Part shown: piece by piece, positions 1,511 through 54,346 of the stretch
Position numbering within the stretch: the stretch's first letter is position 1
Layout: the number at the start of each line of letters is the position of its first letter
Virus record (IMG/VR): IMGVR_UViG_3300024999_000047
DNA from: an uncultured virus (IMG/VR IMGVR_UViG_3300024999_000047)
Lineage: Duplodnaviria; Heunggongvirae; Uroviricota; Caudoviricetes
Strand: one strand, 5' to 3'
Length of the DNA: 64,000 bases
The notes under the pieces: generated by a model
Database searches by the model: none
Seen by the model: only the letters and a program-made list of their open reading frames with translations
Told to the model about the DNA's origin: nothing
Translations under genes and position numbers: made by a program

Positions 1511-3037
1511 ATGAGTAATAAAGTTAATTGGAATAGTGAACAAATAGAATTTATTAAAAATAATTATAATAATATGACTTATACTGAAATAGGTAATTTA
1601 TATAATGTATCAGAAGGTTCAGTTTGTTTATTGTGTAAAAAATTAGATTTAGTAAAAAATAATAAATGGAGTAATGATGAAATTGAAATATTAAAAAATA
1701 ATGTTGATTGCACTATTGAACAATTATTGGTATTATTAAAAAATAAAACTAATATATCAATATATAAAAAATTAAAATATTTAGGTATTAATGCAAAATT
1801 AATAAATGAAGTTTGGTCAATTAATGAAGATAAAATACTAATTAAGGCATCTGAAAATTGCAATTCAATTGAAGAGATAGAAACTTTATTGCCAAATAGG
1901 TCAATACGTGCAATATCTAATAGATTTTATAAACTTGGTTTAAAATTAAAACAAGTCGAATGTTTATTAATTACTAAATTAGATGGATACGGAAAAGGCA
2001 AATCAAAGTTATCTAATTATAGACGTAAATTTGGTATTATTTTAGATAAATCTTTAATAATTGATACATATGACATAATTCAATGGTGGAAATGGACATA
2101 TTATAGTACGCCTAATGGAAAACAATTGAAATGTATACCTCTTGAATTAATTAATTTGAATAATCTAAATATATTACTCAGATATGTTATTACAGAAATA
2201 ATTGGATATAAAACAAGAGAACAGATATTGCAATTAGATTTTAAAACTTTTAGTAAATATAGAATAAGTTTTCATCATTTTTATAAAAGTTCTTTAATTG
2301 ATTATTTAAATTTAATTTTCCCAGAATATAATATTAAACCATTTGAATTAAAAAATGTTCCTCTTGGTTATTGGCAAGACGTGAATAATTGTGATGAATA
2401 TATGGAGTATGTTTTAAAAAATTATTTTCATGTAAATGAAATGAGAAATATTAAGCAACAGATTCCATCGTTTTTTACATTTAAAAATATCAGATTACTT
2501 GGTTATAGTAAATTGGCTTGTTGTATAACTGAAAATAAACAATATTCTTCATTTTATGAATGGTTAAATAAACTTCATCCAGAATGGAATTTAACATCTG
2601 ATGATTTTAAGGAACATATAGCTTTTGATGGTAGTAAATTAAATTCTAATGAAGAAGTTTTAATTTATACTTTTATGAAAAAATATTTTAATTTAAATAT
2701 AAAAGCAATAGGATTAAATAAATCTAAATATAAATTTCATAATATAATATCAAATGAAAATTATATACCAGACTTTTTTATTAAACATAATGATAAAATA
2801 ATTATTATTGAATATTTTGGGTTATTTGATGATAATTGTAAAGATCTTAATAATTCAATGTTTAAAAATTATTATTATAAAACTTTAAGAAAAGTTGAAT
2901 ATTATAAATCAAATCCAGATATTTATTTTATAGACCTTTATCCTACTGATCTTAAAAACAACTTTGAAGGTGTTAGAAAAAAACTAACATCTTTTTTTAT
3001 GTCTAATTTTAATATTAATTTAAAGGAGGCATCATAA
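1511..3037 (+). CDS. Free-standing homing-endonuclease-like protein (Myb/SANT-like repeats plus C-terminal PD-(D/E)XK nuclease)
   Basis: GGAGG then ATG at 1511. W-S-x-x-E repeats; C-terminal YIPDFFIK...IIEYFG. Confidence 0.7.
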   Translation: MSNKVNWNSEQIEFIKNNYNNMTYTEIGNLYNVSEGSVCLLCKKLDLVKNNKWSNDEIEILKNNVDCTIEQLLVLLKNKTNISIYKKLKYLGINAKLINEVWSINEDKILIKASENCNSIEEIETLLPNRSIRAISNRFYKLGLKLKQVECLLITKLDGYGKGKSKLSNYRRKFGIILDKSLIIDTYDIIQWWKWTYYSTPNGKQLKCIPLELINLNNLNILLRYVITEIIGYKTREQILQLDFKTFSKYRISFHHFYKSSLIDYLNLIFPEYNIKPFELKNVPLGYWQDVNNCDEYMEYVLKNYFHVNEMRNIKQQIPSFFTFKNIRLLGYSKLACCITENKQYSSFYEWLNKLHPEWNLTSDDFKEHIAFDGSKLNSNEEVLIYTFMKKYFNLNIKAIGLNKSKYKFHNIISNENYIPDFFIKHNDKIIIIEYFGLFDDNCKDLNNSMFKNYYYKTLRKVEYYKSNPDIYFIDLYPTDLKNNFEGVRKKLTSFFMSNFNINLKEAS

Positions 3038-3038
3038 T

Positions 3039-3224
3039 TTGTCCTTCATATACTGTTTTGATGAACAAGAAAAACATAAACTTCAAAAAGAATTAAAGTT
3101 ATTTCAGGAATCTAAAATTGATAATAAACAATGTTGGATTTTTATTATTGATATTAATAATAAATTTAATTTTAATCAAATTGATAAAAGCAAATGTGTT
3201 GTCAGTAATAAATTAATGTTTTAA
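3039..3224 (+). CDS. Small phage head-module protein
   Basis: AAGGAGG plus TTG; lies between portal and protease. Confidence 0.65.
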   Translation: MSFIYCFDEQEKHKLQKELKLFQESKIDNKQCWIFIIDINNKFNFNQIDKSKCVVSNKLMF

Positions 3225-3250
3225 AAAATTATCAATAAAGGTGGTGAAAT

Positions 3251-4996
3251 ATGAATAAACATTCTAGTTTAAAGGTGAAATTTAATAATGATTTTGTACA
3301 AGTTAATAATTCTGAATTTGTTGAAGGTACTGCTTTAATTGCATATCAAGGAGATAATAGAAATTTATCTGATATTACAGAATTAGCATTTACCAATGCA
3401 ATGCCTAGTTTGTCATTAATACCTATAGTTGGTAATTGGTTGCCTGATAAACAAAATTTCGGTGGACATGATATTGCAATTGAATGGCAAGGCAATACTC
3501 TAGTATTAAAAGATAAAACTGTTCCTTATGGTGTAGTAAAAGAAAATCACAATGCACAATGGATTGAACTTGATGATAATGGAGTAATACATAAATATCT
3601 TCAAGCAGATGTTGTACTTTGGGCAGGTAGGTATCCAGAACAAATACAAAAGGTCATTGATGATGGAATTAATCAAAGCATGGAAATTTCAGTAAGTGAT
3701 TTTTCAATTAAAGAGAGTGGAAACTTCCAGATAAATTCATTTGAATACTCTGCACTTTGTTTACTTGGAAAAGATATAAATGAGAATGGAGAAATCGGTG
3801 AAAATAATGTAGATCCTTGTTTTGAACAAGCATCAGTAGTAGTAAATAAATATAATTTTAATGAACAATTTAAATCTCAGTTTAATAATTTGCTATTTGA
3901 ATTTAATAATCAAATTAGCAATTTAGTTAACACTTCCGTTGAAGGAGGTGATAAAAAAATAATGACAAATGAAGGAGGTAATGATATGGAAGAAAAAATT
4001 AAACTATTGGAACAGTATAATCTTACTTTAGATTCTTTTAATTTTAACATAGAAGAATTTTCTATCGAACAATTAAAAGAAAAGATTAATGAACATTTTG
4101 CTCTATTAGCTTCTCAAAAACAAGAAGAAATTGCAAACGCTTTAAGAGTAGAAAAGTTTAGAGATAGATGGGGAGATGAATGTTCAAAGTATTCTTATAC
4201 AGAACACAATGATACTGAAGTTTTTACTTATGACAGACAAGAAAATTGGAATTTATATGGATTTGTTTATACTATGAGTGGAGATAAAGTTATTATAGAT
4301 TTTGAATCCAAAAAAAGAAAGAAATTTGAAATAGTTGATTTTGTTGAAGGTGATATGGCATTTGAATTATTTCCAAAAGAAGCAGTTGAATATGAATTAT
4401 CAACAAAAGAAAAAGAATTGCAAGAGAATTTTTCTATTGAGAAAGAATTTGCTATTAAAGAAATTCAAGATAAATTTGATGTGCAACCTGAAATTGGAGA
4501 ATTGAATTTAAAAATATCTGAATATGAAGAAAATAATATTTTATTGACTGAGCAATTTAATTCTGTAAAGAATGAAAATGAAATTATTAAATCAAAAATT
4601 GAAACTATTCAATCAGAATTCAATTCTCTAAAAACAGAAAATGAAACACTTATTAGTTCAAATGAAATTCTTACTCAAACTAATACTTCCCTTCAAGAAT
4701 TTAGAACAAACATTGAACAACAGCAACAAGAAGCATTTGAAGCACAACAATTACAACTTAAAGCAGAATTAATTGAAAACTTCTCTAAAATATTAACTGC
4801 TGAAGAAATTAAAACAGTAGAAGATAAAAATTTATCACTTGAAGATATGGATAAGGAATTTAAACTTATGTTTGCTTCTAAAGAATTATCTGCAAAATTT
4901 GCAAAGAAACCTAAAAAAACTGATACAGAGATTCCAATTTTTAATTTTTCACTTAAGAAAAAAGAAGATTGGACTTCATTAATACCTAAGAAATAA
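3251..4996 (+). CDS. Prohead protease/scaffold protein
   Basis: N-terminal NFGGHD...QSMEI...FEYSALCLLG...PCFE motifs, acidic coiled-coil C-terminus, position upstream of capsid genes. Confidence 0.75.
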   Translation: MNKHSSLKVKFNNDFVQVNNSEFVEGTALIAYQGDNRNLSDITELAFTNAMPSLSLIPIVGNWLPDKQNFGGHDIAIEWQGNTLVLKDKTVPYGVVKENHNAQWIELDDNGVIHKYLQADVVLWAGRYPEQIQKVIDDGINQSMEISVSDFSIKESGNFQINSFEYSALCLLGKDINENGEIGENNVDPCFEQASVVVNKYNFNEQFKSQFNNLLFEFNNQISNLVNTSVEGGDKKIMTNEGGNDMEEKIKLLEQYNLTLDSFNFNIEEFSIEQLKEKINEHFALLASQKQEEIANALRVEKFRDRWGDECSKYSYTEHNDTEVFTYDRQENWNLYGFVYTMSGDKVIIDFESKKRKKFEIVDFVEGDMAFELFPKEAVEYELSTKEKELQENFSIEKEFAIKEIQDKFDVQPEIGELNLKISEYEENNILLTEQFNSVKNENEIIKSKIETIQSEFNSLKTENETLISSNEILTQTNTSLQEFRTNIEQQQQEAFEAQQLQLKAELIENFSKILTAEEIKTVEDKNLSLEDMDKEFKLMFASKELSAKFAKKPKKTDTEIPIFNFSLKKKEDWTSLIPKK

Positions 4997-5033
4997 TAAA
5001 ATAATAAAATTAAATTTAAGGAGGAATAATTTT

Positions 5034-5585
5034 ATGGCTAATGTAAATAATGTAGCAACTGGTAAGTATGGCATTGTAAATCTTCGTAAAGTAGCAGGTG
5101 TGAAAACAGGTGAGCATAACATTCAATATGCTTTAAATGCAACTGATTTTGCTGCTACTGCTTGTCAAAATGGTTTCCTTTTAGTAGAGAATCATTATGG
5201 AAAAACTCTTGATCTCCCTTCTGCTGCAACTGACAGAGTTGGTTTAGTGGCATGTGTAGAAAAAATGTATGATGAAAGTGATATGTCTTTAGGTAATTTT
5301 AGACTTAATCTTAATGAATATTTGCCTAGAATTTATCGTATGAAAATAGGTGATATGTTCGATACTAATAACTTTAAATATGATGATGGAGATTATGCTA
5401 ATTATGCTGCTATTGTAGCTGCTATTACTGCTGGTACTCCAGTATATGCATATCCTTCCACTAATGGTCAAATTGAATTAGAACCTATTCAAAATGCTGG
5501 AGCTGCTGTTGAATTACAGGCAACTAGAGTTGTAACTTTACCTGCTGGCGAAGCTGGTTTAATGTTCGTCTGCACAAAAAGTTAA
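5034..5585 (+). CDS. Capsid decoration/cement protein
   Basis: Strong RBS; lies between scaffold and major capsid; beta-rich. Confidence 0.65.
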   Translation: MANVNNVATGKYGIVNLRKVAGVKTGEHNIQYALNATDFAATACQNGFLLVENHYGKTLDLPSAATDRVGLVACVEKMYDESDMSLGNFRLNLNEYLPRIYRMKIGDMFDTNNFKYDDGDYANYAAIVAAITAGTPVYAYPSTNGQIELEPIQNAGAAVELQATRVVTLPAGEAGLMFVCTKS

Positions 5586-5658
5586 GTAGTAATAAATTAT
5601 AAATATAATAATATTAAATATAAATTATAAACATAAATTAAAGGAGGAATATATAGAT

Positions 5659-6660
5659 ATGGAAAGGAAATATTTTGAATTAGCCAAAGCTACATATAAT
5701 AGAAATGATTCAATTGTAGATGATGTTGTATACACTTCTGCTGAAAAAAATGAGGCATTAAGAAATGCTTTTAAGGAATTAGTACCTGATGGTAAAAATA
5801 GGTATAAAAGTTTCAGAAATAACAAGAATGAAATTTTTGAACTAATCGAAGAAAATGTTGATGAAATTCTGCCAAAAAGAGTTGATGATGCTTATGGTGG
5901 TTTTGTTGAGTATCAGATTTTAGATCAAGGACAAAAACCTAAATTTAAGACTAAAAAAGGTAAAAGAGGTTTACTTAATTTTATTACCAAAGTTGGTTTA
6001 GGTGGTGTAATTGAAAGAACAAGATTAGATGTTGATTATATTAACATGACTATGGAAGCATTTGGCGGTGCAGTATATGTCGAATTTGAGCGTTTTTTAG
6101 ACGGCGTGGTGGATTGGACTGATTTAATTAATGCTATCGTAGATGGTATTATGGAAAAAATCAATCTTCAAATTCAAACTACTTTAATTGCTTCATTCAC
6201 TGGTTTGTCTGCTAATATGAAAGTACAAGCTAACTCTTTTGTTCCTAGTCAAATGGGACAATTAATTACCAATGTACAATCTTATGGTGATAACGTAGTT
6301 ATTTTCTGTACTCCTACTTTTGCAGGTACTATCGAAGAAACTCCTGGATTTGTAAGTGATATGGATAGAACTGAACGTAGGGAATTTGGTAGAATTGGTA
6401 AATTTAGAGGTGCTAGTGTAATTGTATTACCTAACGCTTTTGCCGATGATACTAATAATAGTAAAGTATTGAGTGACCAATATGCTATTATTGTTGCAAC
6501 AAATGAAAGTAAAATTGTTAAAGTAGCATTTGAAGGTGAAACTATTGTAAGAGAAACTGAAAATGCAGATATGAGTATAGATTTCGAATCCTATAAAAAG
6601 TTCGGAATTACCATAGTTTACAGTAATTGGTATTCGATGTATAGAAATACTAGTTTGTAA
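5659..6660 (+). CDS. Major capsid protein
   Basis: 333 aa, strong RBS, followed by a terminator; synteny and HK97-fold-like C-terminus. Confidence 0.8.
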   Translation: MERKYFELAKATYNRNDSIVDDVVYTSAEKNEALRNAFKELVPDGKNRYKSFRNNKNEIFELIEENVDEILPKRVDDAYGGFVEYQILDQGQKPKFKTKKGKRGLLNFITKVGLGGVIERTRLDVDYINMTMEAFGGAVYVEFERFLDGVVDWTDLINAIVDGIMEKINLQIQTTLIASFTGLSANMKVQANSFVPSQMGQLITNVQSYGDNVVIFCTPTFAGTIEETPGFVSDMDRTERREFGRIGKFRGASVIVLPNAFADDTNNSKVLSDQYAIIVATNESKIVKVAFEGETIVRETENADMSIDFESYKKFGITIVYSNWYSMYRNTSL

Positions 6661-15391: not shown

Positions 15392-15593
15392 TTTTTAGTA
15401 ATATTTATAGTTTGATACTTCTCCATACATATTTATATTAGTATTTTTTACAAATATCATAATCAAATTTGGTTTTATAATAATCAATACAATAAACACA
15501 CACGCACACACATCAATCCCCTCACACAACATTTTCATTCATTTATCATCCAACAATTTAAATACAATTTGAATACAAAACGGAGGTGATATA

Positions 15594-16061
15594 TTGTCTT
15601 CACCCATAGCAAGAATTACATCTGATAAAAAATTAAAATTAAAAGGAAATCTATATACAACACAAGATGCTTATGATTACACAACACAGTTTGATGATGC
15701 TTATCAGTTTGATGATACTTACCAAATAGACGATAATGCAGAAATTTTTACATTATTTAATTATTTATTAGGAATTGAAAATACTTCAACACAAGTTGAT
15801 AAATTTTATATTGATAATAGAGGTAATTTAGTTACTCCAGAAGTTTATACAATTTGGCAAGGATTTGATGGAAGTGAAAATATTGATACTACAATTGAAT
15901 TAAATACTGAACATAGTATTGATTCAAGTTTAGGAACGGAAGAATTTATTTCATATTTATTTGGTGGATTAACAGTTGAAGATATTTCTATAAATAAATT
16001 TAAAATATTATCAAATAAAAAGTTGTTAGTTAATGAAGTTTTAGAAAGTCAAATTTTGTAA
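15594..16061 (+). CDS. Acidic repeat protein, probably virion-associated
   Basis: GGAGGTG plus TTG; QFDDAYQFDDTYQIDD repeats and internal duplication. Confidence 0.6.
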   Translation: MSSPIARITSDKKLKLKGNLYTTQDAYDYTTQFDDAYQFDDTYQIDDNAEIFTLFNYLLGIENTSTQVDKFYIDNRGNLVTPEVYTIWQGFDGSENIDTTIELNTEHSIDSSLGTEEFISYLFGGLTVEDISINKFKILSNKKLLVNEVLESQIL

Positions 16062-16159
16062 ATTATAATTAAGCAATGTTCTATCACAATTTTAGAAAAT
16101 AAAACTCTTTAAAATTAAGGGTTTATAAATTAGTAAAATAATTTAAGGAGGTTAATTAC

Positions 16160-17125
16160 ATGGCGATTTTTCCTTTCGATGATATTTTAACAACATTTAA
16201 AAATGGAACATCAAGAGCATTAAGAGTTGTTACTGAAAATCTAATAACAGGTGGATATTCCCCTGCTAATTTAACAATGCAAAATGCAGTAACAGCAAAT
16301 GGTAATGGTACAACATTAAATGTAAATGAATATGCAACAGCAGTATTAGAAATTAGAGGTACTTTTTCAGCAACTATTAATTTTGAATGTAGTATTGATG
16401 GTACAAATTGGTATCCTGTTTTAGCAACAAAAAATGATGGAATAATTAGTAGTAGTTGTTCTACGGCAGGGTTATATGAAATTAAGGTTGCTGCTTGGAA
16501 ATCTATACGTGCAAGAGTTAGTGGTTATGTGAGTGGCAATGTAACTGTTGTTGGGAAGGTTAGTCCGTTGGTTAATGCGGAAAAGAGTATGCAACTAACT
16601 GGTAGTTTACCTTCGGGAAATGAGCATGTTGGGCAGGTAGGGTATACGCTTAAAAAAGTGGCTACTAACTTTACTCGTCCGTCTGACACAACACCGTATA
16701 CCGTAGGCGACGCTATCACAAACAGCACATCTGCCCCAGTAGTGTTTCAATTGGATTTAGGTGCTTTGGGTGCGGTAGCAGGGCAAGCGGTAGAGGTAAG
16801 AAAAATAGCGGTAATATCTAGTGCAAAACAAGCAATTTTACCGCTTATGAATATCTATCTTTCAAATGTAACCTTTACAGCAACAAACGACAACTCTGCT
16901 CTCGATATTGCTGACGAAGTTATGCAAGCAGGGGGAGCATGGTTTAACACAGATATCCAAAATTACACAGCAAGTAATAGTCGTGTATCACAACAAAATA
17001 TTTCAATCCCCATGACTCTTGCTGATGCTGACACAAAACTATATGGCATACTTCAAGATACAATAGGTTATACCCCTGCCAGTGGCGAGGTATTTACTAT
17101 TGTTGCTTGGATTGCATTGTTGTAG
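16160..17125 (+). CDS. Two-domain virion accessory protein with a junction at MQLTGS
   Basis: Strong RBS; beta-rich N-domain (FECSIDGTNW); second domain begins after the shared site at 16588-16606. Confidence 0.6.
   Translation: MAIFPFDDILTTFKNGTSRALRVVTENLITGGYSPANLTMQNAVTANGNGTTLNVNEYATAVLEIRGTFSATINFECSIDGTNWYPVLATKNDGIISSSCSTAGLYEIKVAAWKSIRARVSGYVSGNVTVVGKVSPLVNAEKSMQLTGSLPSGNEHVGQVGYTLKKVATNFTRPSDTTPYTVGDAITNSTSAPVVFQLDLGALGAVAGQAVEVRKIAVISSAKQAILPLMNIYLSNVTFTATNDNSALDIADEVMQAGGAWFNTDIQNYTASNSRVSQQNISIPMTLADADTKLYGILQDTIGYTPASGEVFTIVAWIALL
16588..16606 (+). repeat. Cassette left site L1, identical to 52187-52205
   Basis: TATGCAACTAACTGGTAGT, 19/19 identical in two otherwise dissimilar genes and in the same reading frame. 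Confidence 0.85.
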
Positions 17126-17130
17126 GTGAT

Positions 17131-17862
17131 ATGATGTATCCATTTTTTAGTAAGAAAGGGCAAAGAGGTATTGTAAAACGTGGTTTGTTTGCTTATTATA
17201 ACGCATTGCGACAATACTCTACAAACCAAGTAGGTCAGAGACTAATTGATTTTTCTGGAAATAATTACCGAGGTCAATCTGGAAGTGTCCCTGTCTCTGA
17301 CCCAAATGACCCAATATTTACATCCCAGGGTTTAAGTTTTGATGGTGTTGATGATTATATTAATGTCGGTAATATAGGTAAGTTAATGCGTACTTGTCAG
17401 ATTGTTTTCTATACGCCGACAGAGATAAACAAAACAAGTAGTAGTAGTGCTTTGATTAGTATTGAGGGAAATGATAATGGTTATATTGCCATTGGTCTTA
17501 CTACATCCCTCATAGCAGATGAAATAATTACTATATTAGATATTAGTGGCGGTAGAAGTGGGTGGTGCAGTTCGTCAGGAAATATCCCGATAGGTTGGCA
17601 TTTATTGGAGGTTGTATGGTTAGATAGTAAATATCGTATAATTTTGGATGGTATAGAAAAACCGATAACTACAGCAAATGCGCCAAGAGTTTTAAATGCT
17701 ACAAATTTAAGACTAGGCAGCGTTCCATCGGGAGGTTCTTATTTTAATGGCAAACAAGCAGAAATACTTCTGTATGAACGCACACTAACAAACTCTGAAT
17801 TAGCACAAAACAGAGCATTTATCAAAGCAGAATGTAAAAATTATGGCATTACAATTAATTAA
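17131..17862 (+). CDS. LamG/concanavalin-A-like lectin domain protein
   Basis: LSFDGVDDYI...GWHLLEVVW...IILDG...YFNGKQAEILLYERTLT. Confidence 0.75.
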   Translation: MMYPFFSKKGQRGIVKRGLFAYYNALRQYSTNQVGQRLIDFSGNNYRGQSGSVPVSDPNDPIFTSQGLSFDGVDDYINVGNIGKLMRTCQIVFYTPTEINKTSSSSALISIEGNDNGYIAIGLTTSLIADEIITILDISGGRSGWCSSSGNIPIGWHLLEVVWLDSKYRIILDGIEKPITTANAPRVLNATNLRLGSVPSGGSYFNGKQAEILLYERTLTNSELAQNRAFIKAECKNYGITIN

Positions 17863-17878
17863 AAGGGGGGCTTTAAAA

Positions 17879-18133
17879 ATGGTGGTTTTATTTCAAAGTA
17901 AAAATGATGCAGATAACACTTGCAAGCAAATTGAAATTCTGCCTAGCGGAATTTATGTTTGGTATTCTGAGGATGGAATAAATAATATGATACAGTATGC
18001 ACAAAGCGTAGATGGTCGCTGTGCCATGTCTGCTAATTTTACTTCTGAGGATATTGCTGTTTGGGGTGCTTACCCTGCCGTTACGCTTATGACTGGTTTA
18101 CCTGCTGATTGGCAATATCCCACATTAGGTTAA
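17879..18133 (+). CDS. Small hypothetical protein, last gene of cassette 1
   Basis: GGGGG RBS then ATG at 17879; stop codon abuts site R1. Confidence 0.6.
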   Translation: MVVLFQSKNDADNTCKQIEILPSGIYVWYSEDGINNMIQYAQSVDGRCAMSANFTSEDIAVWGAYPAVTLMTGLPADWQYPTLG

Positions 18134-18157
18134 CCAACTAACTAAAATGCGTTAGTT
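18134..18157 (+). repeat. Cassette right site R1 (palindromic)
   Basis: CC-AACTAAC-taaaatgc-GTTAGTT: 7-bp arms with an 8-bp spacer; matches 53877-53900. Confidence 0.8.
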
Positions 18158-18373
18158 ATATAACTCAATAATCTATAATCTATAATTAAATAATATAAAA
18201 ACACTATTTATACATATCAAATATTAAATATAATTAACACAATTAATTAAATATAATTATATTCACACTAATATCTAAAACACAATAAGGATTACTTCAT
18301 ACTAATGCATAATAAAAATGCATCAACATGGATTAATCCTTATTTTTTTAGTTTTATTGTTATAAAACTGAGA

Positions 18374-18442
18374 TTTTGTCATGATTTTGGGATTTTTAAA
18401 GTGTTGATTTATAGGGGTTTAGTGGATGTGTGATTTTTGATA
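18374..18442 (+). repeat. 69-bp dispersed repeat, copy 1
   Basis: Ungapped 55/69 match (manual count) to 54049-54117; core AAAGTGTTGATTTATARGGGTTTAG. Confidence 0.8.
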
Positions 18443-18506
18443 AATTTGTGATTTTCATGGAATGTAAGATTAGAATAAGTAAATATAATTTTAAGGAGAT
18501 GTTAGT

Positions 18507-19088
18507 ATTTCAAATGTATTAAAATTGGTATCCCCTATCGGAGTTTCAGTAAACCATTATTTGAAGCCACGTAGTTTTTTGATTTATAAAAATGGTAAAC
18601 CTGTCCCTCAAGTTACGATGTATGAAACTAAAGAAGCAAAAGATTACAAGAAAAAATTTATTAAACACATTAAAGAACAAATTAATCTTCAAGGATGGGA
18701 AAAATCAGATAATAAGTATCAGAAATATTTCGTTGATTGTACCTTCTTTTTCCCACGTATAGATATGGATAGTAATAACATGTATAAATTACTTCTGGAT
18801 TCCCTGACAGAATCAGAAGTTTGCTGGATTGACGATACGCAATCATGTGAAAGGACACAAGGTATATTCTATGATTCTGAAAATCCTAGAATTATAATTG
18901 AAATACGTCCTGTCGATTTTGTAGGTATCTTCCCTACTAACGAACAATTACAAATATTTAAAAGTAATTGCATCACATGTAGTAGATATAGAGATGGTAG
19001 ATGTAGTATTTTAGTAAAAAGTTTAGAAGGGAGAATTCAAAAAGAGATTAATGATTTAACATGTGGTAAATTTAAACCTAAAAAATAA
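18507..19088 (+). CDS. rusA: RusA-family Holliday junction resolvase
   Basis: SVNHY...DMDSNNMYKLLLDSL...WIDD...YDSENPRIII. Probable ATT start after AAGGAG. Confidence 0.8.
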   Translation: MSNVLKLVSPIGVSVNHYLKPRSFLIYKNGKPVPQVTMYETKEAKDYKKKFIKHIKEQINLQGWEKSDNKYQKYFVDCTFFFPRIDMDSNNMYKLLLDSLTESEVCWIDDTQSCERTQGIFYDSENPRIIIEIRPVDFVGIFPTNEQLQIFKSNCITCSRYRDGRCSILVKSLEGRIQKEINDLTCGKFKPKK

Positions 19089-19112
19089 TTATTAAGATAG
19101 TAAATATAATTG

Positions 19113-21229: not shown

Positions 21230-21361
21230 ACTAGATGCTTAATGGAGTAATTACCCATTAAAAAAGAGAGTTGTCCTTTCTCTCTGCATCTAGTTTTTAT
21301 ATTTTATAAAACAAAATAAAAAAGGATGAATGTTAGTGATTTAAAATAAAATGAAAAGGAC
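21230..21361 (+). promoter_or_regulatory. Putative structured RNA leader, copy 3
   Basis: P1 ACTAGATGC/GCATCTAGT; P2 TTAATGG-agtaattac-CCATTAA; P3 AGAGAG-ttgtccttt-CTCTCT; loop pairs with AAAGGAT (21321) and AAAGGAC (21355). Confidence 0.65.
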
Positions 21362-21371
21362 GTGGTATGAA

Positions 21372-23189
21372 ATGTTAGTGAAATGTATGGTTGACAGAAA
21401 AACTTTTGAAAACAAACCAAGTGGAGATCAATCTAAAGGTATCCAATTTAGAATGGCACAAACAGAAATTGAAATTGAAGAATTAGCTAATTTATTAAGT
21501 AATGGAGCAACTTTTAAACCTGCATTACTCAATGGTAGAAAAAGTATAGATTGGCTTACTCAACAATTATTTGCTTTAGATTTTGATGGTGGTACTACTA
21601 TTGAAAAAGAATTAAATAATTGTAGAGAATTAAATATATTGCCTATTTTTGGATATAAAACATTTTCTTATACTCAATATAAAGAGAAATTTAGATTAGT
21701 ATTTTGTAGTAATATAGTAATAACTAATGTAGAAACAAGAAATAAATTTCAAAAATTATTAATTGCATTATTTCCTACTAGTGACTCTGTAACATTTGAT
21801 CCTACAAGGTTATTCTTTGGTGGAAAAGAATTAATTAATTGTGATTATAATAATAGAATAAATATTAATAATATTATGATTAAATTTAAAGATATATTAA
21901 AAAGTATAGTTGATTCATCTACTTTGAGGTTAATCAATACTAATACAATAAACTCTTCTTCTATTAGTATGCAGAAAGCTCAGAATCCCCGTCCTGTAAG
22001 GGTTTACGAGGAGTTTTCCCATTTTAATGCAATAAAAAATTTAGATGTAATTTTAATGAAACATCTTCTTCAAATAAATGGTGATAAAGTTATTTGTGTA
22101 AATAAACAAGAAGTTTATGATTTTATTAATGGAATAGATTTATGTGAATTTACAAATATACATAGTATGGTAAATTGTATATTACCTGATCATCAAGATG
22201 ATACTCCTTCGGCACATATTTATACAACTGATAGTGGAACACAAATATATAAATGTTTTGGTTGCGATGCGAAATATACAATAATATCTTTAGTAGAAAA
22301 ACTAGCAAAATGTAAAAGAATTAAAGCAATTGAATTTATAAAAAAAGTATATAATATCGAATTACAACAAACAGAATGGCAAAAACAACAATTAGAAATA
22401 CTTGATATAAATATTGAATTATTATTATCTGATGAATTTAAAGAAATATATCCTCAACTCCATTCTTTAATAAGAACAAGAAAAAATAATCTTATTGCAT
22501 TAAATAACTATGCAAAAATTAATATTAAAGATGAAGATTTTTGTGTAGATGAAAATCCATTATTTTTTGCTTCTCTGACTAAAATTATGGATATTTTTGG
22601 TTCAAAAGATAGAACTAAAGTATCACAGAGTATTACATTATTTGCTTTATTAAGTTTATTAAATAAAATACCACATGAGAAATTACCTGAAGAAACTTTT
22701 AACAAAGCAAAACATATTGCAGCAAAATATGGTCTTACTAAATTAGTTAATTTTTATAGTATTGATCAATATGGAGTGGATTCTTTAGAAGAAAGCAATA
22801 AAATTGCTAAAACATTAAAAGATAACAATATATCTTTAAAAGGTATTTCTAGGGAATATTTATTAAGAACATTTGGTAAAGAATTAACAAATAAAATATA
22901 TCCTCAATATATTTATGAGAATGAATTAGGCACTTCTGAAAAATCTAATGAAAATAGTAGTAAAATAGCATCTTATATTTTAGATGAAATAGAGAAAAAA
23001 GGTTATGTTTTAGAAAAAGAATTAAAAATTGATAATATAACAGAAACACAATGGAAACGTAGTATTCAAGAAATATTGGATGGCTATGGATTAATTAAAA
23101 TAACTGCCAATAAAGAAATAAAGTTGAAATATAATATTGATGTTGCAGAAAGAAGTTATCCTAAGATTATTGTTAAAGGAGGTGAATAA
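21372..23189 (+). CDS. AEP-like primase/Rep protein with CHC2-type zinc finger, paralog 1
   Basis: FALDFDGG...YKTFS...KFRLVF; CILPDH...PSA...YKCFGC; aligns by eye with 56734-58674. Confidence 0.65.
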   Translation: MLVKCMVDRKTFENKPSGDQSKGIQFRMAQTEIEIEELANLLSNGATFKPALLNGRKSIDWLTQQLFALDFDGGTTIEKELNNCRELNILPIFGYKTFSYTQYKEKFRLVFCSNIVITNVETRNKFQKLLIALFPTSDSVTFDPTRLFFGGKELINCDYNNRININNIMIKFKDILKSIVDSSTLRLINTNTINSSSISMQKAQNPRPVRVYEEFSHFNAIKNLDVILMKHLLQINGDKVICVNKQEVYDFINGIDLCEFTNIHSMVNCILPDHQDDTPSAHIYTTDSGTQIYKCFGCDAKYTIISLVEKLAKCKRIKAIEFIKKVYNIELQQTEWQKQQLEILDINIELLLSDEFKEIYPQLHSLIRTRKNNLIALNNYAKINIKDEDFCVDENPLFFASLTKIMDIFGSKDRTKVSQSITLFALLSLLNKIPHEKLPEETFNKAKHIAAKYGLTKLVNFYSIDQYGVDSLEESNKIAKTLKDNNISLKGISREYLLRTFGKELTNKIYPQYIYENELGTSEKSNENSSKIASYILDEIEKKGYVLEKELKIDNITETQWKRSIQEILDGYGLIKITANKEIKLKYNIDVAERSYPKIIVKGGE

Positions 23190-24588: not shown

Positions 24589-26367
24589 TTGATGGCAATA
24601 AAGTATACAGATGAAGAGATAATTGAAAAGTATAAAGATTTTGCAAGTAGATTAGGTAAAACTCCAACACAAGATGATGTAAACAATGAATCAAAAAGTA
24701 ACAAATATTTTCCAAGTGGTAAAGTTTTGTTTAGTAGATTTGGTGGTAAAACAAAACTTGATGAGGTATGTGGTTTAAAATTAAATCATATATATTTTAC
24801 TGATAATGAATTATTAGATAAACTTAAAAACTTTTATGATAAAAATGGTTTCCCTATTAAAAAAGAAATTAATAAAGATGAAGATATGCCAAATGCAGAA
24901 GTATATCGTATTAGATTTGGAAGTTTTAAAGATGCAATAATTAAAGCAAATATCCCAATACCTAAAAATAAAGAAAATAGTTTAAAAAATAATAAAGTAT
25001 ATTTAGAAGATGATATTTTATTAGAACAACTTAAACAAGTTTTAACAACACATGGTATTATTCCAATTTCTAAATTTAAAGAATATGGTTTATATAGTAT
25101 GGTTGTATATAGAAATAGATTTGGAACATATAAAGAAATCTTAAATATGTTAAATATACATATACCAGAAGATATAGAAAGTAAATATTTTTCTAAATTT
25201 AAAAATAAATCAAATGAAGAATTAATAATTTATCTACAAGATTACTATGATAAATATGGATTACCAACTACTAGAGATTTAAAAAATAATAATGATTATC
25301 CAAGTGATTATATTTATAGAGAAAGATTTGGTAGTTTTGAGAATGCATTATTAATTGCCAATATTGAAATTCCGCAAGATAAAGAATGGTTATATAATAG
25401 AGAAAGTATGGATACGGATATTATATTAAAAAATTTAAAAGAATTTATTTATAATAATTATACAGAAAAAGATATATTACCTGGAATGAAAGAATTATTT
25501 ATTTTATGTGATATTCCAAGTCAATCAGTTTTATTTAAAAAATTTTATAGTATTCAAGAATTATATAGTCAAATAAATGTAGATTATTATAAACATAATA
25601 ATCATGCTATAAAATTAGATATGATTAAAAAATATAAAGAATTATATTCAATATTAGGTAGAACACCACATAGTAGAGATATTGAGTATTATTCTAGAAA
25701 TAAAGAAGAATTTTATTCAATGGGTGCATATGAATTTCATTTTGGAAGTGTTTATCAACTTCAAGTTTATTGTGATTTTATACCTACTGTAATTGGAAGA
25801 CATAAATCAAGGAGTGATTTAATAGAAGATTTGCAAGAATTATATGAAAGATTAGGTAGAATTCCTACTCAAAAAGATGTTAATATGTGTGAATGGATGG
25901 CATCTAGTTCTAGTTATAATATAGAATTTGGTGGATTTATTGAATCATTGAAAATTTCTGGTATTATAAATGGAAAACAAAACAGTAAATGTAGTATTAC
26001 TCCACAAGGCAATTATTGTAGATCATCATATGAATTTGATTTTTGTATAATGTTAGAAAATAAAGGATTAAGTTTTAGACAAGAAGATCATTATTCAAAA
26101 TACATAAAAGATTTTACTAGAAGATTTAGATTTGATTACATTGTTAATATAAATAATATTGATTATTTTATAGAAATATTCGGTATGATGGAGCATAAAT
26201 GGTATAGTGATAAAGCAGATTATAAAATTAAATTATGTGAAGATAATAATTTAATTTTGATTGATTTATATAAAAATGACTTTAAGAAAAGTGATATAGA
26301 AACATTGTATAATTTGTTGTTAAATAAGATTGATAATATAAATAATAATTTAAAGGATGTGTCTTAA
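24589..26367 (+). CDS. Homing-endonuclease-associated-repeat protein with C-terminal PD-(D/E)XK-like nuclease
   Basis: About seven LG.TP...Y..RFGS repeats; RSSYEFDF...RFDY...FIEIFG; TAATG overlap with the recombinase gene. Confidence 0.7.
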   Translation: MMAIKYTDEEIIEKYKDFASRLGKTPTQDDVNNESKSNKYFPSGKVLFSRFGGKTKLDEVCGLKLNHIYFTDNELLDKLKNFYDKNGFPIKKEINKDEDMPNAEVYRIRFGSFKDAIIKANIPIPKNKENSLKNNKVYLEDDILLEQLKQVLTTHGIIPISKFKEYGLYSMVVYRNRFGTYKEILNMLNIHIPEDIESKYFSKFKNKSNEELIIYLQDYYDKYGLPTTRDLKNNNDYPSDYIYRERFGSFENALLIANIEIPQDKEWLYNRESMDTDIILKNLKEFIYNNYTEKDILPGMKELFILCDIPSQSVLFKKFYSIQELYSQINVDYYKHNNHAIKLDMIKKYKELYSILGRTPHSRDIEYYSRNKEEFYSMGAYEFHFGSVYQLQVYCDFIPTVIGRHKSRSDLIEDLQELYERLGRIPTQKDVNMCEWMASSSSYNIEFGGFIESLKISGIINGKQNSKCSITPQGNYCRSSYEFDFCIMLENKGLSFRQEDHYSKYIKDFTRRFRFDYIVNINNIDYFIEIFGMMEHKWYSDKADYKIKLCEDNNLILIDLYKNDFKKSDIETLYNLLLNKIDNINNNLKDVS

Positions 26368-27395
26368 TGGGTAGAAAAACAGAACAACATAGTATAGTTA
26401 CACCTGAATTATGGGAACAAGTTTCAAATGAAAATAAGGAATTAATGAATGAATTTTTGGATTACTGTAGAGGTAAAGACATGGCATCTGGTAGTATAAA
26501 AGGATACTGCAATGATATTGAAATTTGTTTAGTTTGGAATTTACAATATAATAAGAATAAATTTTATGTTGATTTTAATAAAAGAGACATTCTTAAATAT
26601 CAAAATTGGCTTGTCAATACTCAAAATCTAAGTTCTAATAGAGTTAGAAGATTAAAAGCTGCTATTAGTAGTATGTCAAACTACATAGAATCAATACTAG
26701 ATGACGTTTATGAAGGATATCGTAATATAGTAAATAAAATCCCTGCTCCACCAAAGCAAGAAGTTAGAGATAAAACAGTATTAAGTGATGAACAAGTTGA
26801 TTATTTATTAGATTATTTAGTTAAAAAAGAAAAATATCAACAAGCATGTGCATTAGCTTTGGCTGTTGCAAGTGGTTCAAGAAAACAAGAATTATTGAGA
26901 TTTAAAGTAAGTTTTTTTACTGATGAAAATATTAAATATGGTGCTTTATATAAAACACCTGAAAAGATCAAAACTAAAGGACGTAGTTCTAGGGGTAAGA
27001 TGCTCTATCGTTACGTTTTGGTTAGTAAATTTAAACCATATTTTGATTTATGGATGAAACAACGTGAAGAATTAGGTATTCAAGGAGAAGAATTATTTTG
27101 GAATAAAAGAAATGGTGTTTGGAAACCAGGAGATATTTCATTACTTAATTCTTGGGCAAATACATTCTCTAACATACTTGGTATCTTCTATTACTTTCAT
27201 TCAGCCCGTCACAAATTTTGTACGGATTTATGTAAAGCAAATATTCCAGCAGATGTAATTAAGGATGTGATTGGATGGCAGTCTACCTCGATGATATCAA
27301 TATATAATGACCAAGAAGTTGATGATGAATTAGGTAAATATTTTGATTCTTCTGGAATTAAACAAGTTGAAAATAAATCATTAGGTGATTTGTAA
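26367..27395 (+). CDS. Tyrosine recombinase
   Basis: Catalytic pattern GSRKQELL (R), KTK (K), HSARH (HxxR), IGW, IY (Y); directly upstream of the tape measure gene. Confidence 0.9.
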   Translation: MGRKTEQHSIVTPELWEQVSNENKELMNEFLDYCRGKDMASGSIKGYCNDIEICLVWNLQYNKNKFYVDFNKRDILKYQNWLVNTQNLSSNRVRRLKAAISSMSNYIESILDDVYEGYRNIVNKIPAPPKQEVRDKTVLSDEQVDYLLDYLVKKEKYQQACALALAVASGSRKQELLRFKVSFFTDENIKYGALYKTPEKIKTKGRSSRGKMLYRYVLVSKFKPYFDLWMKQREELGIQGEELFWNKRNGVWKPGDISLLNSWANTFSNILGIFYYFHSARHKFCTDLCKANIPADVIKDVIGWQSTSMISIYNDQEVDDELGKYFDSSGIKQVENKSLGDL

Positions 27396-51619: not shown

Positions 51620-51916
51620 TTGTCTTTATTTAATAATAATTTTTTATTACAACAAAAATTAACAGATATAGATACGGCAATTGCTAATACTAATACATCT
51701 ATACAAAATGCTAATAATGCAACTACCACAGCTAATACAGCAACTATTAATGCTAATACAGCAACTATTAATGCTAATACAGCAACACAAAATGCAAATA
51801 ATAAAGTTAATCAGTTAGATAATTTTGATTATGAAACTATGACTATGGGTAATTATAGATTAAAAAATAATATAGAAACAGATGCATTAGATATTGAGTA
51901 TTTAGGTGGTAGTTAG
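51620..51916 (+). CDS. Short coiled-coil fiber-like protein
   Basis: ANTATIN heptads from a 21-bp tandem repeat at 51731-51786. Confidence 0.6.
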   Translation: MSLFNNNFLLQQKLTDIDTAIANTNTSIQNANNATTTANTATINANTATINANTATQNANNKVNQLDNFDYETMTMGNYRLKNNIETDALDIEYLGGS

Positions 51917-52049
51917 TAGATTAAAATATTAATATAAATATATTAATATAAAAGGAAGTTTTTATTATGATTTATAAAATATAATAATTTGTTTTTAAGG
52001 GAGTATTAATACTACTCTCTTTTATTTATTTTAAAAAGGAGGTTTTTAT

Positions 52050-52382
52050 ATGGCTTTAAATCCTATTTCCGATCTACTCCAAGGGATTAAGAGATTATAT
52101 GTTGGATTACAAGGTGTTAAATCTGATGGAGTAACAATGGAAACAATTAAAACTAATGATGCAGGTGCTATGAAAGTTGATGGCACTATGCAACTAACTG
52201 GTAGTATAGTTGTAATAGGTGGCGTAACCTTTGCAGTATCAGGTGGTGATACATTACGTAATACTGTTGCCAATAAACCAGATGCGGCTACTACACATGC
52301 TGTTATACCATTTTGTTATTATTTTAGTGTTGATACTGGAGTTGTTGAGGTTACAGATGGCGTTAATTGGGTGGTGATATAG
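52050..52382 (+). CDS. Virion accessory protein with a junction at MQLTGS
   Basis: AAGGAGG RBS; contains site L2. Confidence 0.65.
   Translation: MALNPISDLLQGIKRLYVGLQGVKSDGVTMETIKTNDAGAMKVDGTMQLTGSIVVIGGVTFAVSGGDTLRNTVANKPDAATTHAVIPFCYYFSVDTGVVEVTDGVNWVVI
52187..52205 (+). repeat. Cassette left site L2
   Basis: TATGCAACTAACTGGTAGT, identical to 16588-16606. Confidence 0.85.
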
Positions 52383-52383
52383 C

Positions 52384-53871
52384 ATGGATTTAGTCACTCT
52401 AAAATCTGCTAAGAATTATACAAACACAAAAACACTACCTCTTTTTTCTGATGTAACAATCACAAATAAATTATCAAATTCAAATTTTGCTAGTGCTACA
52501 AACTGGTCATTTGTATTGTCGAATGGTAGTGTGTCTAATAATGAAGCAATATTTACAGCCACAGCACTGTATGGACAATTAAGACAAGGTGTTGCTGAAA
52601 ATGTTGTGGTAGGTAAAAAATACTACTTTAGGGCAAAAGTAAAATCATCTTCTAGTAATGTTAATTTAAGTATGGCATGGACGTCTGATGGCAGCATAAT
52701 CACAGAAGTAGCACATAGCGGAAATGGGCAGTATGCCATTCTCGAAGGTACTTTTATTGCTACAGCAAGTGCAGCGATACAATTTAAAATTATTGATTAT
52801 AATTCAGCTAATTTTGCAGAAATTAGAGTTGCAGAAGTAATGTTAACGAGTCTAACTGTAGAGTATGGAGCCGGCTATGAATCTTCTGTATCTGACTATA
52901 AATCTGTTATCCAATTGTATAATAATCAATCCTTGTTTGTCCAAACAACTCTTGCAGTAAAAGCAGTTATCACAAGGAGTACACTACCTTTATTTGTTAA
53001 TATTACTAATAACATATTAAATGTAATTGCAAAGTATAATGCTACACAAGATTTAAGATTTGTTCTAAATAAAAAAGGCCCAAATTCTATTTTTGATTTT
53101 GGAAGTATTTACAAGGTAACTAATAATGCAAATTCAGTATCAAATAACATATCAGCAGGTACTTCTTTTTGGTCAAATGGAACAGACTCGTTCGGACCAT
53201 TTACCGTAGCAGCGGTAAGTAATGCTGATGGCGACAATCCTGGCACTTCTGCATTTACTGGTGGCAATCACGGTTATAATGGTGATGCAACAGGCAGTGC
53301 AACAGGAAGAACATCTTCAATCAGCTTTTTTGTGGACGGAAGAAAAGTTACTTCATTTTCTGGATTTGCTTCTTTCGTTGAAATTGAATGGATTAACTAT
53401 ATTCAGGCATATAACACCAAAAAGGCATCTGGTGGTGGGCGTGAGGTTATAAAAAAAACCTATCGAATGTCATTTGATGGGTTAAATTGGGAAGTTAGAA
53501 ATATTATCGAGTTTTTAGAAGCATGTAATGTAGAAACTTATTATGGTTTGCAATTAAGTTGTACTTCTTGGAATGGATATTTGTTATTCCATTCTGCTAC
53601 CAACAAACAATGGAATGCAGGAAATGTTAACTGTAACTCAGGAAGTAAGACCTGTAATCTTGTCACACATAAACTTAATACTGATTTTGCAGATTTAGGA
53701 CTAGATATTTCTTTTGGACTAGCTAATTCCGTAAACCTTCATACAGCAGCTTACAATGCTTTTAGGACAAATTATGATAAGTCGTATTTTAACCTAATCG
53801 ACTACCAGAGTGGTTTTTCTGCTGGTGATGTTTTGAGTTTAAGAGGATATTACAAGTTTTATAGTGCATAG
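52384..53871 (+). CDS. CBM-like domain protein, candidate receptor-binding or adhesion protein
   Basis: NKLSNSNF...W...LRQ...GKKYYFRAKVK galactose-binding-like pattern; beta-rich. Confidence 0.6.
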   Translation: MDLVTLKSAKNYTNTKTLPLFSDVTITNKLSNSNFASATNWSFVLSNGSVSNNEAIFTATALYGQLRQGVAENVVVGKKYYFRAKVKSSSSNVNLSMAWTSDGSIITEVAHSGNGQYAILEGTFIATASAAIQFKIIDYNSANFAEIRVAEVMLTSLTVEYGAGYESSVSDYKSVIQLYNNQSLFVQTTLAVKAVITRSTLPLFVNITNNILNVIAKYNATQDLRFVLNKKGPNSIFDFGSIYKVTNNANSVSNNISAGTSFWSNGTDSFGPFTVAAVSNADGDNPGTSAFTGGNHGYNGDATGSATGRTSSISFFVDGRKVTSFSGFASFVEIEWINYIQAYNTKKASGGGREVIKKTYRMSFDGLNWEVRNIIEFLEACNVETYYGLQLSCTSWNGYLLFHSATNKQWNAGNVNCNSGSKTCNLVTHKLNTDFADLGLDISFGLANSVNLHTAAYNAFRTNYDKSYFNLIDYQSGFSAGDVLSLRGYYKFYSA

Positions 53872-53876
53872 TTTAC

Positions 53877-53900
53877 CCAACTAACTGGGGTGCGTTAGTA
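53877..53900 (+). repeat. Cassette right site R2
   Basis: CC-AACTAAC-tggggtgc-GTTAGTA, 5 nt after the stop codon. Confidence 0.8.
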
Positions 53901-54048
53901 CGGTAACTTACAATTGAATATTGATTTAATAATACATAACAAAACTTAATATTGTATTTTCTAAATTAAACAAAAATAAAAATAGTAGTTACTTAATAAA
54001 AAGTAACTACTATTTTTTAACTTAAAATAACTTAAAATAAAATAAACC

Positions 54049-54117
54049 TTTTATCATGATTTCTAATTTTAGAAAGTGTTGATTTATAAGGGTTTAGGGC
54101 ATGTGAGGATTTTGATA
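54049..54117 (+). repeat. 69-bp dispersed repeat, copy 2
   Basis: 55/69 identical to 18374-18442. Confidence 0.8.
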
Positions 54118-54346
54118 TTTTTTGATTTTTAGTTTTTGGTATTTAGTTTTTAGTTAATTATTTTTTTATCTATGTATATGAAGAGAGAAGAAATACTCCC
54201 TTCTTCTCTCTTATTTGTTTTATCAATAATGTTGGTGATTATTGATAATTATTTGAATTATATCATTAAGGGAGGTTTATGTCAATATGGAATGTGAAAA
54301 TAATTGTAATGGAGTTGATAAATTTTTAGAAGGAGATGTTGAGAAT

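Follow-up and report, generated by a model that had tools for sequence, protein, structure and literature searches.

The DNA analysed here, 64,000 nucleotides (nt) from an uncultured tailed virus (IMG/VR IMGVR_UViG_3300024999_000047; hereafter the window), carries two loci at which a gene runs in frame through a short conserved sequence, L, into cargo that ends at a palindrome, R. The phage is AT-rich (~25% G+C). Annotated genes of the window include those for portal, tape measure protein, Dit, tail proteins, endolysin and many HNH endonucleases, together with one tyrosine recombinase and one serine recombinase. The window is part of a phage genome; the nearest record, G001 (47.7 kb), spans cassette 2 only and was rated 27% complete by CheckV. 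An earlier note, made from the letters alone, had proposed that the first locus holds an exchangeable C-terminal cassette of an integron- or shufflon-like system, and this proposal was followed up at both loci, in relatives and in mapped metagenome contigs.

Layout of the two loci

Locus 1 is built on gene 16160-17125 (coordinates are those of the window unless a relative is named, and the features described lie on the + strand). Its constant N-terminal module (16160..16591, amino acids (aa) 1-144) recurs at 46-99% identity in 15 other proteins. The in-frame left junction, L1, lies at 16588..16606, with the invariant core CTAACTGGTAG at 16595-16605. Cargo follows as a predicted C-terminal beta-sandwich domain fused in frame to the module (cargo 1a, 16607..17125; predicted local distance difference test (pLDDT) 79-94, residues 161-321), a LamG or concanavalin-like lectin protein (cargo 1b, 17134..17862; PF13385, E value 8e-8) and a small terminal open reading frame (ORF) of 84 aa from its ATG, or 96 aa from 17843 (cargo 1c, 17879..18133). 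The right junction, R1 (18129..18165), has the core CAACTAAC-TAAAA-TGCGTTAGT at 18135-18156 and a weak outer pairing, GTTA/TAAC. A repeat of ~69 nt lies downstream at 18374..18441.

Locus 2 is built on gene 52050-52382, whose constant N-terminal module (52050..52190, aa 1-47) has homologs in two relatives, L199 and L202, that diverge around the L core. L2 (52187..52205), located by motif search, is the identical 19-mer and again in frame. Cargo 2 (52206..53871) comprises the 63-aa C-terminal tail of gene 52050 and a 495-aa protein (52384-53871). R2 (53873..53912) has the core CAACTAAC-TGGGG-TGCGTTAGT at 53878-53899, with outer pairing TTACC/GGTAA, and a second copy of the ~69-nt repeat is found at 54057..54125.

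The 19-mer TATGCAACTAACTGGTAGT that constitutes L occurs exactly twice in the window, at 16588-16606 and 52187-52205. Tolerance of up to 3 mismatches brought no extra match, and none of 100 shuffled sequences had two or more copies. Both copies encode M-Q-L-T-G-S in the frame of their genes, as described in the earlier note. The shorter word CAACTAACT is present four times, at 16592, 18135, 52191 and 53878 (0.58 copies expected; 0/100 shuffles gave four), and it is therefore a direct repeat at either end of both cassettes.

R was found 1.5-1.7 kb past each L, right behind a stop codon, as the palindrome CAACTAAC-N5-TGC-GTTAGT. In R1, which reads CCAACTAACTAAAATGCGTTAGTT at 18134-18157, the arms AACTAAC/GTTAGTT enclose an 8-nt spacer and the site abuts the TAA at 18131-18133. 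R2 (53877-53899) differs from it in four spacer letters only. Reading the L frame through R, the TAG within GTTAG is reached after Q-L-T and three further residues, which bears out the cleanly ended product that had been predicted for an empty site. The two copies of the repeat behind R (18374-18441 and 54057-54125) are ~80% identical as judged by eye in an alignment, and a 25-mer inside them matches between the copies at no more than one mismatch. The repeat was also found past the last R in relatives L181 and L202.

The G+C fraction is 0.33-0.45 in the cargo (0.33-0.34 in cargo 2) and 0.19-0.25 in the flanks. The note's caveat that the rise sets in before L also held: 16250-16549, ahead of L1, is already at 0.33.

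Recurrence and conservation of L and R

R was scanned for on its own with a pattern of 17 specified bases, which gave 25 loci in public viral contigs and 38 in metagenome contigs. After removal of duplicates these amounted to 43 distinct R contexts, and the loci come nearly all from one sample series, labelled groundwater in the run table. Beyond those of the window, about 35 R sites were counted, spread over many unrelated phages of one habitat. Every R site with a purine-rich spacer and sufficient upstream DNA has the core CTAACTGGTAG in frame, read xLTGS, 0.5-2.2 kb upstream. Chance-like matches, with a non-purine spacer and no L core, were seen in L033, L035, L044 and L055. A scan of one genome per species returned just two R matches (L179 and L180), neither with an L core upstream. 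The scan for L with a 14-mer gave ~190 matches, mostly chance; counted over all loci, 33 of 128 distinct L cores have an R within 3.5 kb downstream.

At the protein level, [LIVM]TG[SR] was searched for with no constraint on the DNA. This gave 29 sites, 26 of which have the core codons CTA (once TTA)-ACT-GGT followed by AGT (23 sites) or AGA (3 sites). The other three are chance motifs closer to R and use different codons. The earlier note had set a DNA site against a motif kept as peptide only; the L codons show no variation at synonymous positions in any of the 26 sites. Conservation falls to background within 2 letters outside the 14-nt L block, and the codon ahead of the core is variable (CAA, AAA, CCA, ACA, AAG, GAA, ATA or GTA). 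More distant systems from other sample series (L234 and L237) keep the peptide as LTGS/LSGS with different codons, and the peptide therefore has some value of its own. Invariance of the L DNA is a property of the core group.

R has an inner pair of 7 bp, to which many copies add a weaker outer one (TTA../..TAA). Its length is 22-38 nt and 76% of cells pair. Pairing of the arms is kept via two-sided changes in L237 (AACTATC/GATAGTT) and L226 (AGCTAAC/GTTAGCT), and L048 has a 13-bp stem. One change is shared in L237 by the L core (CTATC...) and both R arms. For some phages R is predicted to fold strongly (-10.7 and -19.5 kcal/mol, z -5 and -9). The window has its two L cores on the + strand, and in each of G002-G004 the two copies share one strand.

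Exchange of cargo at the sites

At either locus, the stretch from L to R is filled with different cargo in near-identical relatives. At locus 1 the window is 97.6% identical to L181 through L+15 and 100% identical to L184 through L+23, and unrelated to either thereafter. Both L181 and L184 belong to a single metagenome record series, so that variants of one phage coexist that differ in their cargo. At locus 2, L199 is 96.6% identical to the window over 3.5 kb through 52212, has other cargo and matches again from 53873, and the blastn match of L202 stops at 52208.

A break of homology at QLTGS had been anticipated, and it was observed at the protein level as well. The 15 other proteins that share the N-terminal half of the 16160 protein are conserved through ...EKSMQLTGS and unalignable beyond. 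From a collection of 5.8 billion proteins, the 120 relatives listed for the 16160 protein cover its N-terminal 46-50% or its C-terminal 50-55%; among the matches listed, only the 16160 protein itself spans both halves, and the next best coverage is 75%.

Carriers and cargo assort independently. L046 and L047 have one cargo on different N-termini (78% aa identity from cargo position 2), and L203 and L217, which show no relation ahead of the L core, are identical from there on. Homologous N-termini with different cargo were found in L031, L050 and L037, and also in L188 versus L226.

On the right side of locus 1, three relatives are identical from TGCGTTAGTT on and differ in the five spacer letters. 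L047 and L192 have 1.8 kb of cargo in common through CAACTAAC, after which spacer and downstream sequence differ. Crossovers therefore lie on both sides of the 5-letter spacer, which is what a spacer between two cleavage points would give.

Population contigs of three runs were compared over 15600-19100. Depth in the cargo was 28, 67 and 10 against ~90-600 in the flanks, values that are rough because they were summed over all mapped contigs. A further run (X5) held a small share of matching words and the cargo was not covered. Alternative contigs from the same samples depart from the window at 16606-16621 and return at 18135-18148, in one case at 18284. From these boundaries in relatives and populations, L and R are very probably the preferred limits of horizontally exchanged cargo.

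A different arrangement of the loci was seen in L202, where 2741-5640 was compared with 15577-16225 and 52015-54134 of the window. Genes homologous to 15594 and 16160, complete with L, cargo and R of their own, stand directly behind the locus-2 R and ahead of the sequence that lies downstream of R2 in the window. The two loci, separated by 36 kb in the window, are thus neighbours in this relative.

Cassette rows

L181 has the order L-cargo-R-cassette-R-cassette-R, with R sites 407 and 792 nt apart. This is an integron-like cassette row. The 407-nt middle cassette, which contains a 71-aa ORF, is found again in L202, flanked by R on both sides and in other surroundings. Rows were found in these two relatives only; the window has one cassette per locus.

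The last unit of L181 contains an ORF pair with a weak likeness to ToxN/AbiQ (E values 9e-4 and 5e-4, both below the cut-off). The pair (~2400-3131 of L181, reverse strand) encodes 126 and 62 aa in frames that overlap as if frameshifted, with short tandem repeats ahead, which points to a type III toxin-antitoxin module as the content of this cassette. The last ORF of this third unit stops at the TAG within R, and the third R of L181, considered as an empty site, was rejected on that account. Between the ~69-nt repeat and the RusA gene, L181 also carries a 426-aa protein of RRXRR + HNH type on the - strand (625-1905; IscB-like architecture; PF14239, E value 2e-61). No such protein is present at the corresponding position of the window (18442-18524).

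Recombinases near R

In the loci examined, every copy of a family of Xer-type tyrosine recombinases of ~280 aa follows R at a distance of 60-400 nt and shares its strand. At least 8 lineages, at 53-79% identity, show this arrangement. So that R played no part in the choice, 23 loci were picked by recombinase homology alone. Within 700 nt upstream of the gene, R was found in 16 of the 23 (exact in 8, with 2 mismatches in 5 and with 3 mismatches in 3). Four more R sites, with 4 mismatches, seem genuine (L221 and L223, whose spacer is 12 nt, plus L234 and L237), that of L232 is doubtful, a variant R of L227 with an 11-nt spacer was found by eye, and that of L228 lies 1.25 kb upstream. In L227 the recombinase gene stands behind a homolog of 16160, and the 81% nucleotide identity of this locus to the window ends exactly at 16606.

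The best models for the family were XerC, XerA and XerD, each below its own cut-off. Against the integron-integrase model TIGR02249 scores of 73-103 bits were obtained (cut-off 265), in two separate stretches. A PDB profile search returned XerD at an E value of 2.5e-37 and IntI4 at 1.3e-15, with XerD and XerA as nearest solved relatives. The Xer-type gene is placed inside virion modules, in one example with the L gene on one side and head-tail connector genes on the other (the connector judged from translations), and small repressor-like ORFs lie on the opposite strand beside it in L032 and L053 (judged by eye from translations).

The palindrome AGTTATATAACT at 18152-18163 overlaps the right arm of R1, and similar GTTATATAAC motifs recur around the recombinase promoter region of L227 (at 3160-3200 and 3410-3490 of that contig). 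These may be an operator or an accessory site.

Clostridium phage phiCp-D (L242; MW478291.1) encodes at 2284-6249 an Xer-like 'integrase' that is 35% identical to the R-adjacent family. Its gene lies between genes for a tail polysaccharide-deacetylase and a holin on the same strand, with synteny as in L053. Neither an R nor an L core was found at this locus, only other short inverted repeats.

The tyrosine recombinase of the window (26367..27395, + strand; PF00589, E value 2e-14) had been put forward as a possible enzyme of the cassettes and was rejected. It belongs to a different family from the R-adjacent recombinases (BLASTP E value 0.001, 22% identity), and no L or R core was found near it in the core scan. 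This 342-aa recombinase begins at the end of a 592-aa protein that has six HNH-associated repeats (PF18780; the two span 24589-27395), and the pair is present in G001 too; the two may be a separate mobile unit.

Cargo and carrier proteins

In the model of the 16160 protein, the junction falls in a linker, residues 136-159, that is modelled at low confidence and joins two predicted domains, the N-terminal module being a beta-sandwich predicted with moderate confidence. Structure searches with this model gave generic jelly-roll matches only, at low TM-scores. The cargo 1a domain is widespread on many other N-termini, and 2 of 18 aligned proteins carry the LTGS junction. Cargo 1c belongs to a BLASTP cluster of 11 small ORFs (70-99 aa) from different phages, each the last before R. 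It had no Pfam or PADLOC match, and an assembly-chaperone-like role for this family is a guess. The 495-aa protein of cargo 2 clusters with a 578-aa cargo protein of L037, which has a GH28 match (L010 and L037 are one and the same site).

Other cassettes carry GDSL/SGNH esterases, an alpha/beta hydrolase, a polysaccharide deacetylase and LamG proteins; the window cargo had no toxin match in Pfam or PADLOC. Carrier genes occupy varied positions in virion modules: behind a portal, MuF-family or P22-type coat gene, or between sheath and tail chaperone genes. A MuF-family gene lies in the carrier neighbourhood of L050. Judging from these domains, we infer that the cargo supplies surface-exposed parts that bind or cleave glycans, that is, parts for host recognition. 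The L/R cassette design looks like a means of trading them. No close cultured relatives were found; recombinase matches reached at most 37% identity and the N-terminal domain had one weak match.

Other features of the window

Terminator-like hairpins lie 100-150 nt past R2 (53978-54017, flagged by program) and past R1 (18285-18350, seen by eye and not flagged by program), ahead of the ~69-nt repeat in each case. Tandem 21-nt repeats (51672-51802) are contained in a small gene, 51620-51916, just upstream of the carrier gene of locus 2. Two paralogous large proteins of PHROG 25531 are encoded 35 kb apart, at 21351-23189 and 56734-58674, one of them with a primase-type zinc ribbon.

Proposed mechanism and alternatives

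The reading to which we give somewhat better than even chances is a site-specific exchange of gene cassettes in the fashion of integrons, carried out by the Xer-type recombinase with L as an in-frame docking site. The two loci of the window would then be docking sites of a cassette system common to a community of phages. L would be the 12-14 nt site CTAACTGGTAG, read x-L-T-G-S, within a flexible linker of a virion-surface protein; R would be a small palindromic, hairpin-capable site behind the last cargo gene, and the content from L to R would be the cassette. Through its first coding segment the host protein would gain a new C-terminal domain, and accessory genes would come next (lectin, glycan-cleaving enzyme, small ORF). 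The Xer-type recombinase may join the L sites, and likewise the R sites, of two co-infecting genomes or, alternatively, L with R, by which cassettes would be excised and inserted. Some phages encode the enzyme right behind R, and others, perhaps the window phage, would be served in trans. As an outcome, host-recognition parts would be exchanged and cassettes could stack behind R as in an integron. Observed are the sites with their sharp limits, cargo that assorts independently, the cassette rows and a recombinase gene close by; the action of the recombinase on L and R, and the details of strand exchange, are conditional in this account.

Several observations weigh against this reading. With regard to the sites, L spans only ~12 nt and lacks the other inverted arm that would enclose a 6-8 bp spacer. 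The letters past the L core are not those of the R spacers, and a classical two-strand exchange of L by R would leave mismatches. Spacer length is not fixed either, being usually 8 nt, 12 in L221 and 11 in L227. The L core of L228 has CTATC but its R has CTAAC. The R stem covaries only modestly: its inner part is nearly invariant and one of five measures went beyond the shuffles (8 of 500). As single-stranded DNA the window hairpins fold weakly (R1 -4.2 kcal/mol, z -2.0; R2 -5.6 kcal/mol). One phage (L034, L047) has two R sites of identical core in direct orientation ~37 kb apart, and an efficient R-by-R reaction would split that genome.

Not every left boundary falls on L. Agreement between L047 and L192 begins 42 nt ahead of it (L-42), the window and L199 differ over ~15 nt just before L2, and L053 and L188 exchange the entire L gene. 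Products of excision, which the earlier note had expected as empty sites and circular R-L junctions, did not appear. None of 67 R-like sites was an L gene running directly into R, none of 128 L cores had an R-left/L-right junction as in a circle or tandem, and the contigs of three runs held no joint at the predicted empty-site coordinates. An ORF of L205 that runs into R was considered as an empty site and rejected as a spurious overlapping frame. As for the enzyme, no member of the Xer-type family was found in the window or in G001, and no PF00589 protein is encoded in two cassette-bearing genomes rated 100% complete, G003 (with direct terminal repeats) and G004.

Some of these observations would be expected if no dedicated enzyme were involved and general or phage-encoded recombination acted on short homology at conserved linkers, with selection for in-frame products and homogenisation of the junction DNA. 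This alternative is the main rival and clearly the less probable. It would accommodate complete genomes with cassettes and no tyrosine recombinase, the left breakpoints off L (at L-42, ~15 nt before L2 and in whole-gene replacement), the lack of empty sites and circles, and the LTGS/LSGS peptide with other codons in L234 and L237. A RusA resolvase gene also lies shortly past cassette 1 (18525-19088). However, the 12 nt of L and ~22 nt of R are very short, yet boundaries fall there in many independent pairs. Left unexplained are a non-coding palindrome with conserved arms and a variable spacer, and the fact that the Xer-type gene keeps one position and orientation behind R. Moreover, R-to-R cassettes without L, with unrelated genes (L181 and L202), act like units bounded by sites.

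It is improbable that R serves the neighbouring recombinase for some other job, such as lox- or dif-like resolution, circularisation or attachment, with L an unrelated peptide motif of fibres and the cassette ends marked only since fibre genes end there. An R with 7-bp inverted arms and an 8-nt spacer just upstream of an Xer/Cre-like gene would suit such a role, as would the small repressor-like ORFs on the opposite strand beside the recombinase (L032, L053), and the LTGS/LSGS peptide is conserved beyond the DNA motif. Against this, genomes have two or three R sites, most without a recombinase alongside; CAACTAAC is common to L and R as a direct repeat, with the joint change in L237; L is invariant at synonymous positions (26/26); and the recombinase sits within virion-gene modules. 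The one-genome-per-species scan gave its two R matches without L, and no evidence of an attB-like site or a prophage junction turned up.

A role at the level of RNA, with R an mRNA hairpin for stability, termination or processing, L a translational or processing signal and cargo variation incidental, is very improbable: R folds, strongly in some phages, and always lies right after the last stop codon, but the window hairpins are weak and without a T-run, a separate terminator-like hairpin lies ~100 nt past R2, arm sequence is conserved beyond mere pairing, and cargo replacement exactly at the sites, already seen at the DNA level, would go unexplained together with the recombinase linkage.

Four further readings were dropped. 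R as an intrinsic terminator was unsupported, as it has no T-run and separate terminator-like hairpins lie downstream. Inversion, as in a true shufflon, was rejected since all sites are in direct orientation. A diversity-generating retroelement was rejected since whole domains are replaced rather than adenines changed specifically, and no reverse transcriptase match was found in the 49 window ORFs scanned. An insertion sequence (with GGTA.../...TACC ends and an 8-9 bp duplication) was dropped since its ends are too short and the cargo has no transposase.

Host range is the main limit on phage infection, and transfer of receptor-binding parts is mostly credited to undirected mosaicism. If cassette exchange by the Xer-type recombinase is the true reading, a dedicated system of fixed junctions would allow host range to change quickly and module by module in unrelated phages, and foreign domains fused in frame to virion proteins could be read directly from sequence. 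The very compact pair of sites with a 280-aa recombinase would also be a possible tool.

Comparison with known systems

The cassette design described here was not found in a full-text search of the literature that covered main texts. Its parts recall four known systems.

In polymorphic toxin loci (CdiA-CT, Rhs, phage MuF toxins) a conserved peptide motif precedes a variable C-terminus. The likeness lies in a short motif that marks a variable C-terminal module with small accessory genes, and in the many N-terminal carriers that share the motif. Unlike those loci, the cargo here consists of lectins and glycan esterases or hydrolases and not of toxins with immunity genes, the right end bears a palindromic site with a linked recombinase, and no orphan modules were seen.

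Cre/loxP and Xer/dif resemble R in its inverted arms and 8-nt spacer, a few hundred bases upstream of a small Xer/Cre-like gene. They differ in that several sites per genome with differing spacers occur here, together with an asymmetric in-frame partner, and that these sites bound variable cargo; R is thus not the single resolution site of a replicon.

Rin, Min, Gin and Cin, as described in PMC6109161, likewise place a phage tyrosine recombinase beside a receptor-binding-protein gene with a constant N-terminus and exchangeable C-termini. The same paper gives the crossover site of the Rin shufflon of bifidobacterial prophages as an 11-bp repeat, that is, a very short site at an in-frame junction, with a presumed host-range purpose (PMC6109161). 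An in-frame junction of constant and variable parts is present in the window, and an adjoining recombinase was found only in relatives. Whereas those systems, by that account (PMC6109161), invert silent alternatives within one genome, the sites here are direct, each locus has one cargo and the alternatives are found in different genomes from the community. Alternative segments in inverted orientation were not seen. Further differences are the second, palindromic site R, the several unrelated host genes and the R-to-R cassettes with genes other than those of fibres. The earlier proposal is thus supported in part: a shufflon in the strict sense is excluded, and L and R do recur as limits of exchangeable cargo, with an integron-like row in a relative.

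Integrons are closest in plan. A folding palindromic site ends each cassette at its 3' side and a short docking site heads the row; cassettes stack, with three R sites in L181, and one cassette is found in different rows. The R-adjacent recombinase belongs to the Xer/IntI branch of tyrosine recombinases, and the inner arms of R match the integron core consensus at 6 of 7 positions. Unlike in integrons, the docking site is part of a coding sequence, from which the first cassette is read on as a protein domain. R, at 22-38 nt, is far shorter than attC, most loci hold one cassette, and the cargo is virion-associated. The recombinase scores below the integrase cut-off (73-103 vs 265 bits), and its gene stands downstream of the site on the same strand. 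Integron-type cassette rows are thus present in relatives, and the recombinases beside R are not of the IntI type. Phage genomes are reported to contain classical integron parts, including clusters of attC (PMC9892861); the present design is not among them.

Taken as a whole, with chances that we put at about even, the system would be a phage-borne gene capture of the integron kind with its docking site inside virion genes. Each cassette would be at once a new tip of a virion protein, and a small Xer-type recombinase would act on a 12-nt in-frame site and a miniature hairpin site. Cassettes that bind or cleave glycans, and also others with unrelated genes, a ToxN/AbiQ-like one among them, would circulate among unrelated phages of one groundwater community. 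If so, the principle of the integron, capture at a fixed site by an enzyme of Xer/IntI type, would extend from gene expression to the assembly of protein domains.

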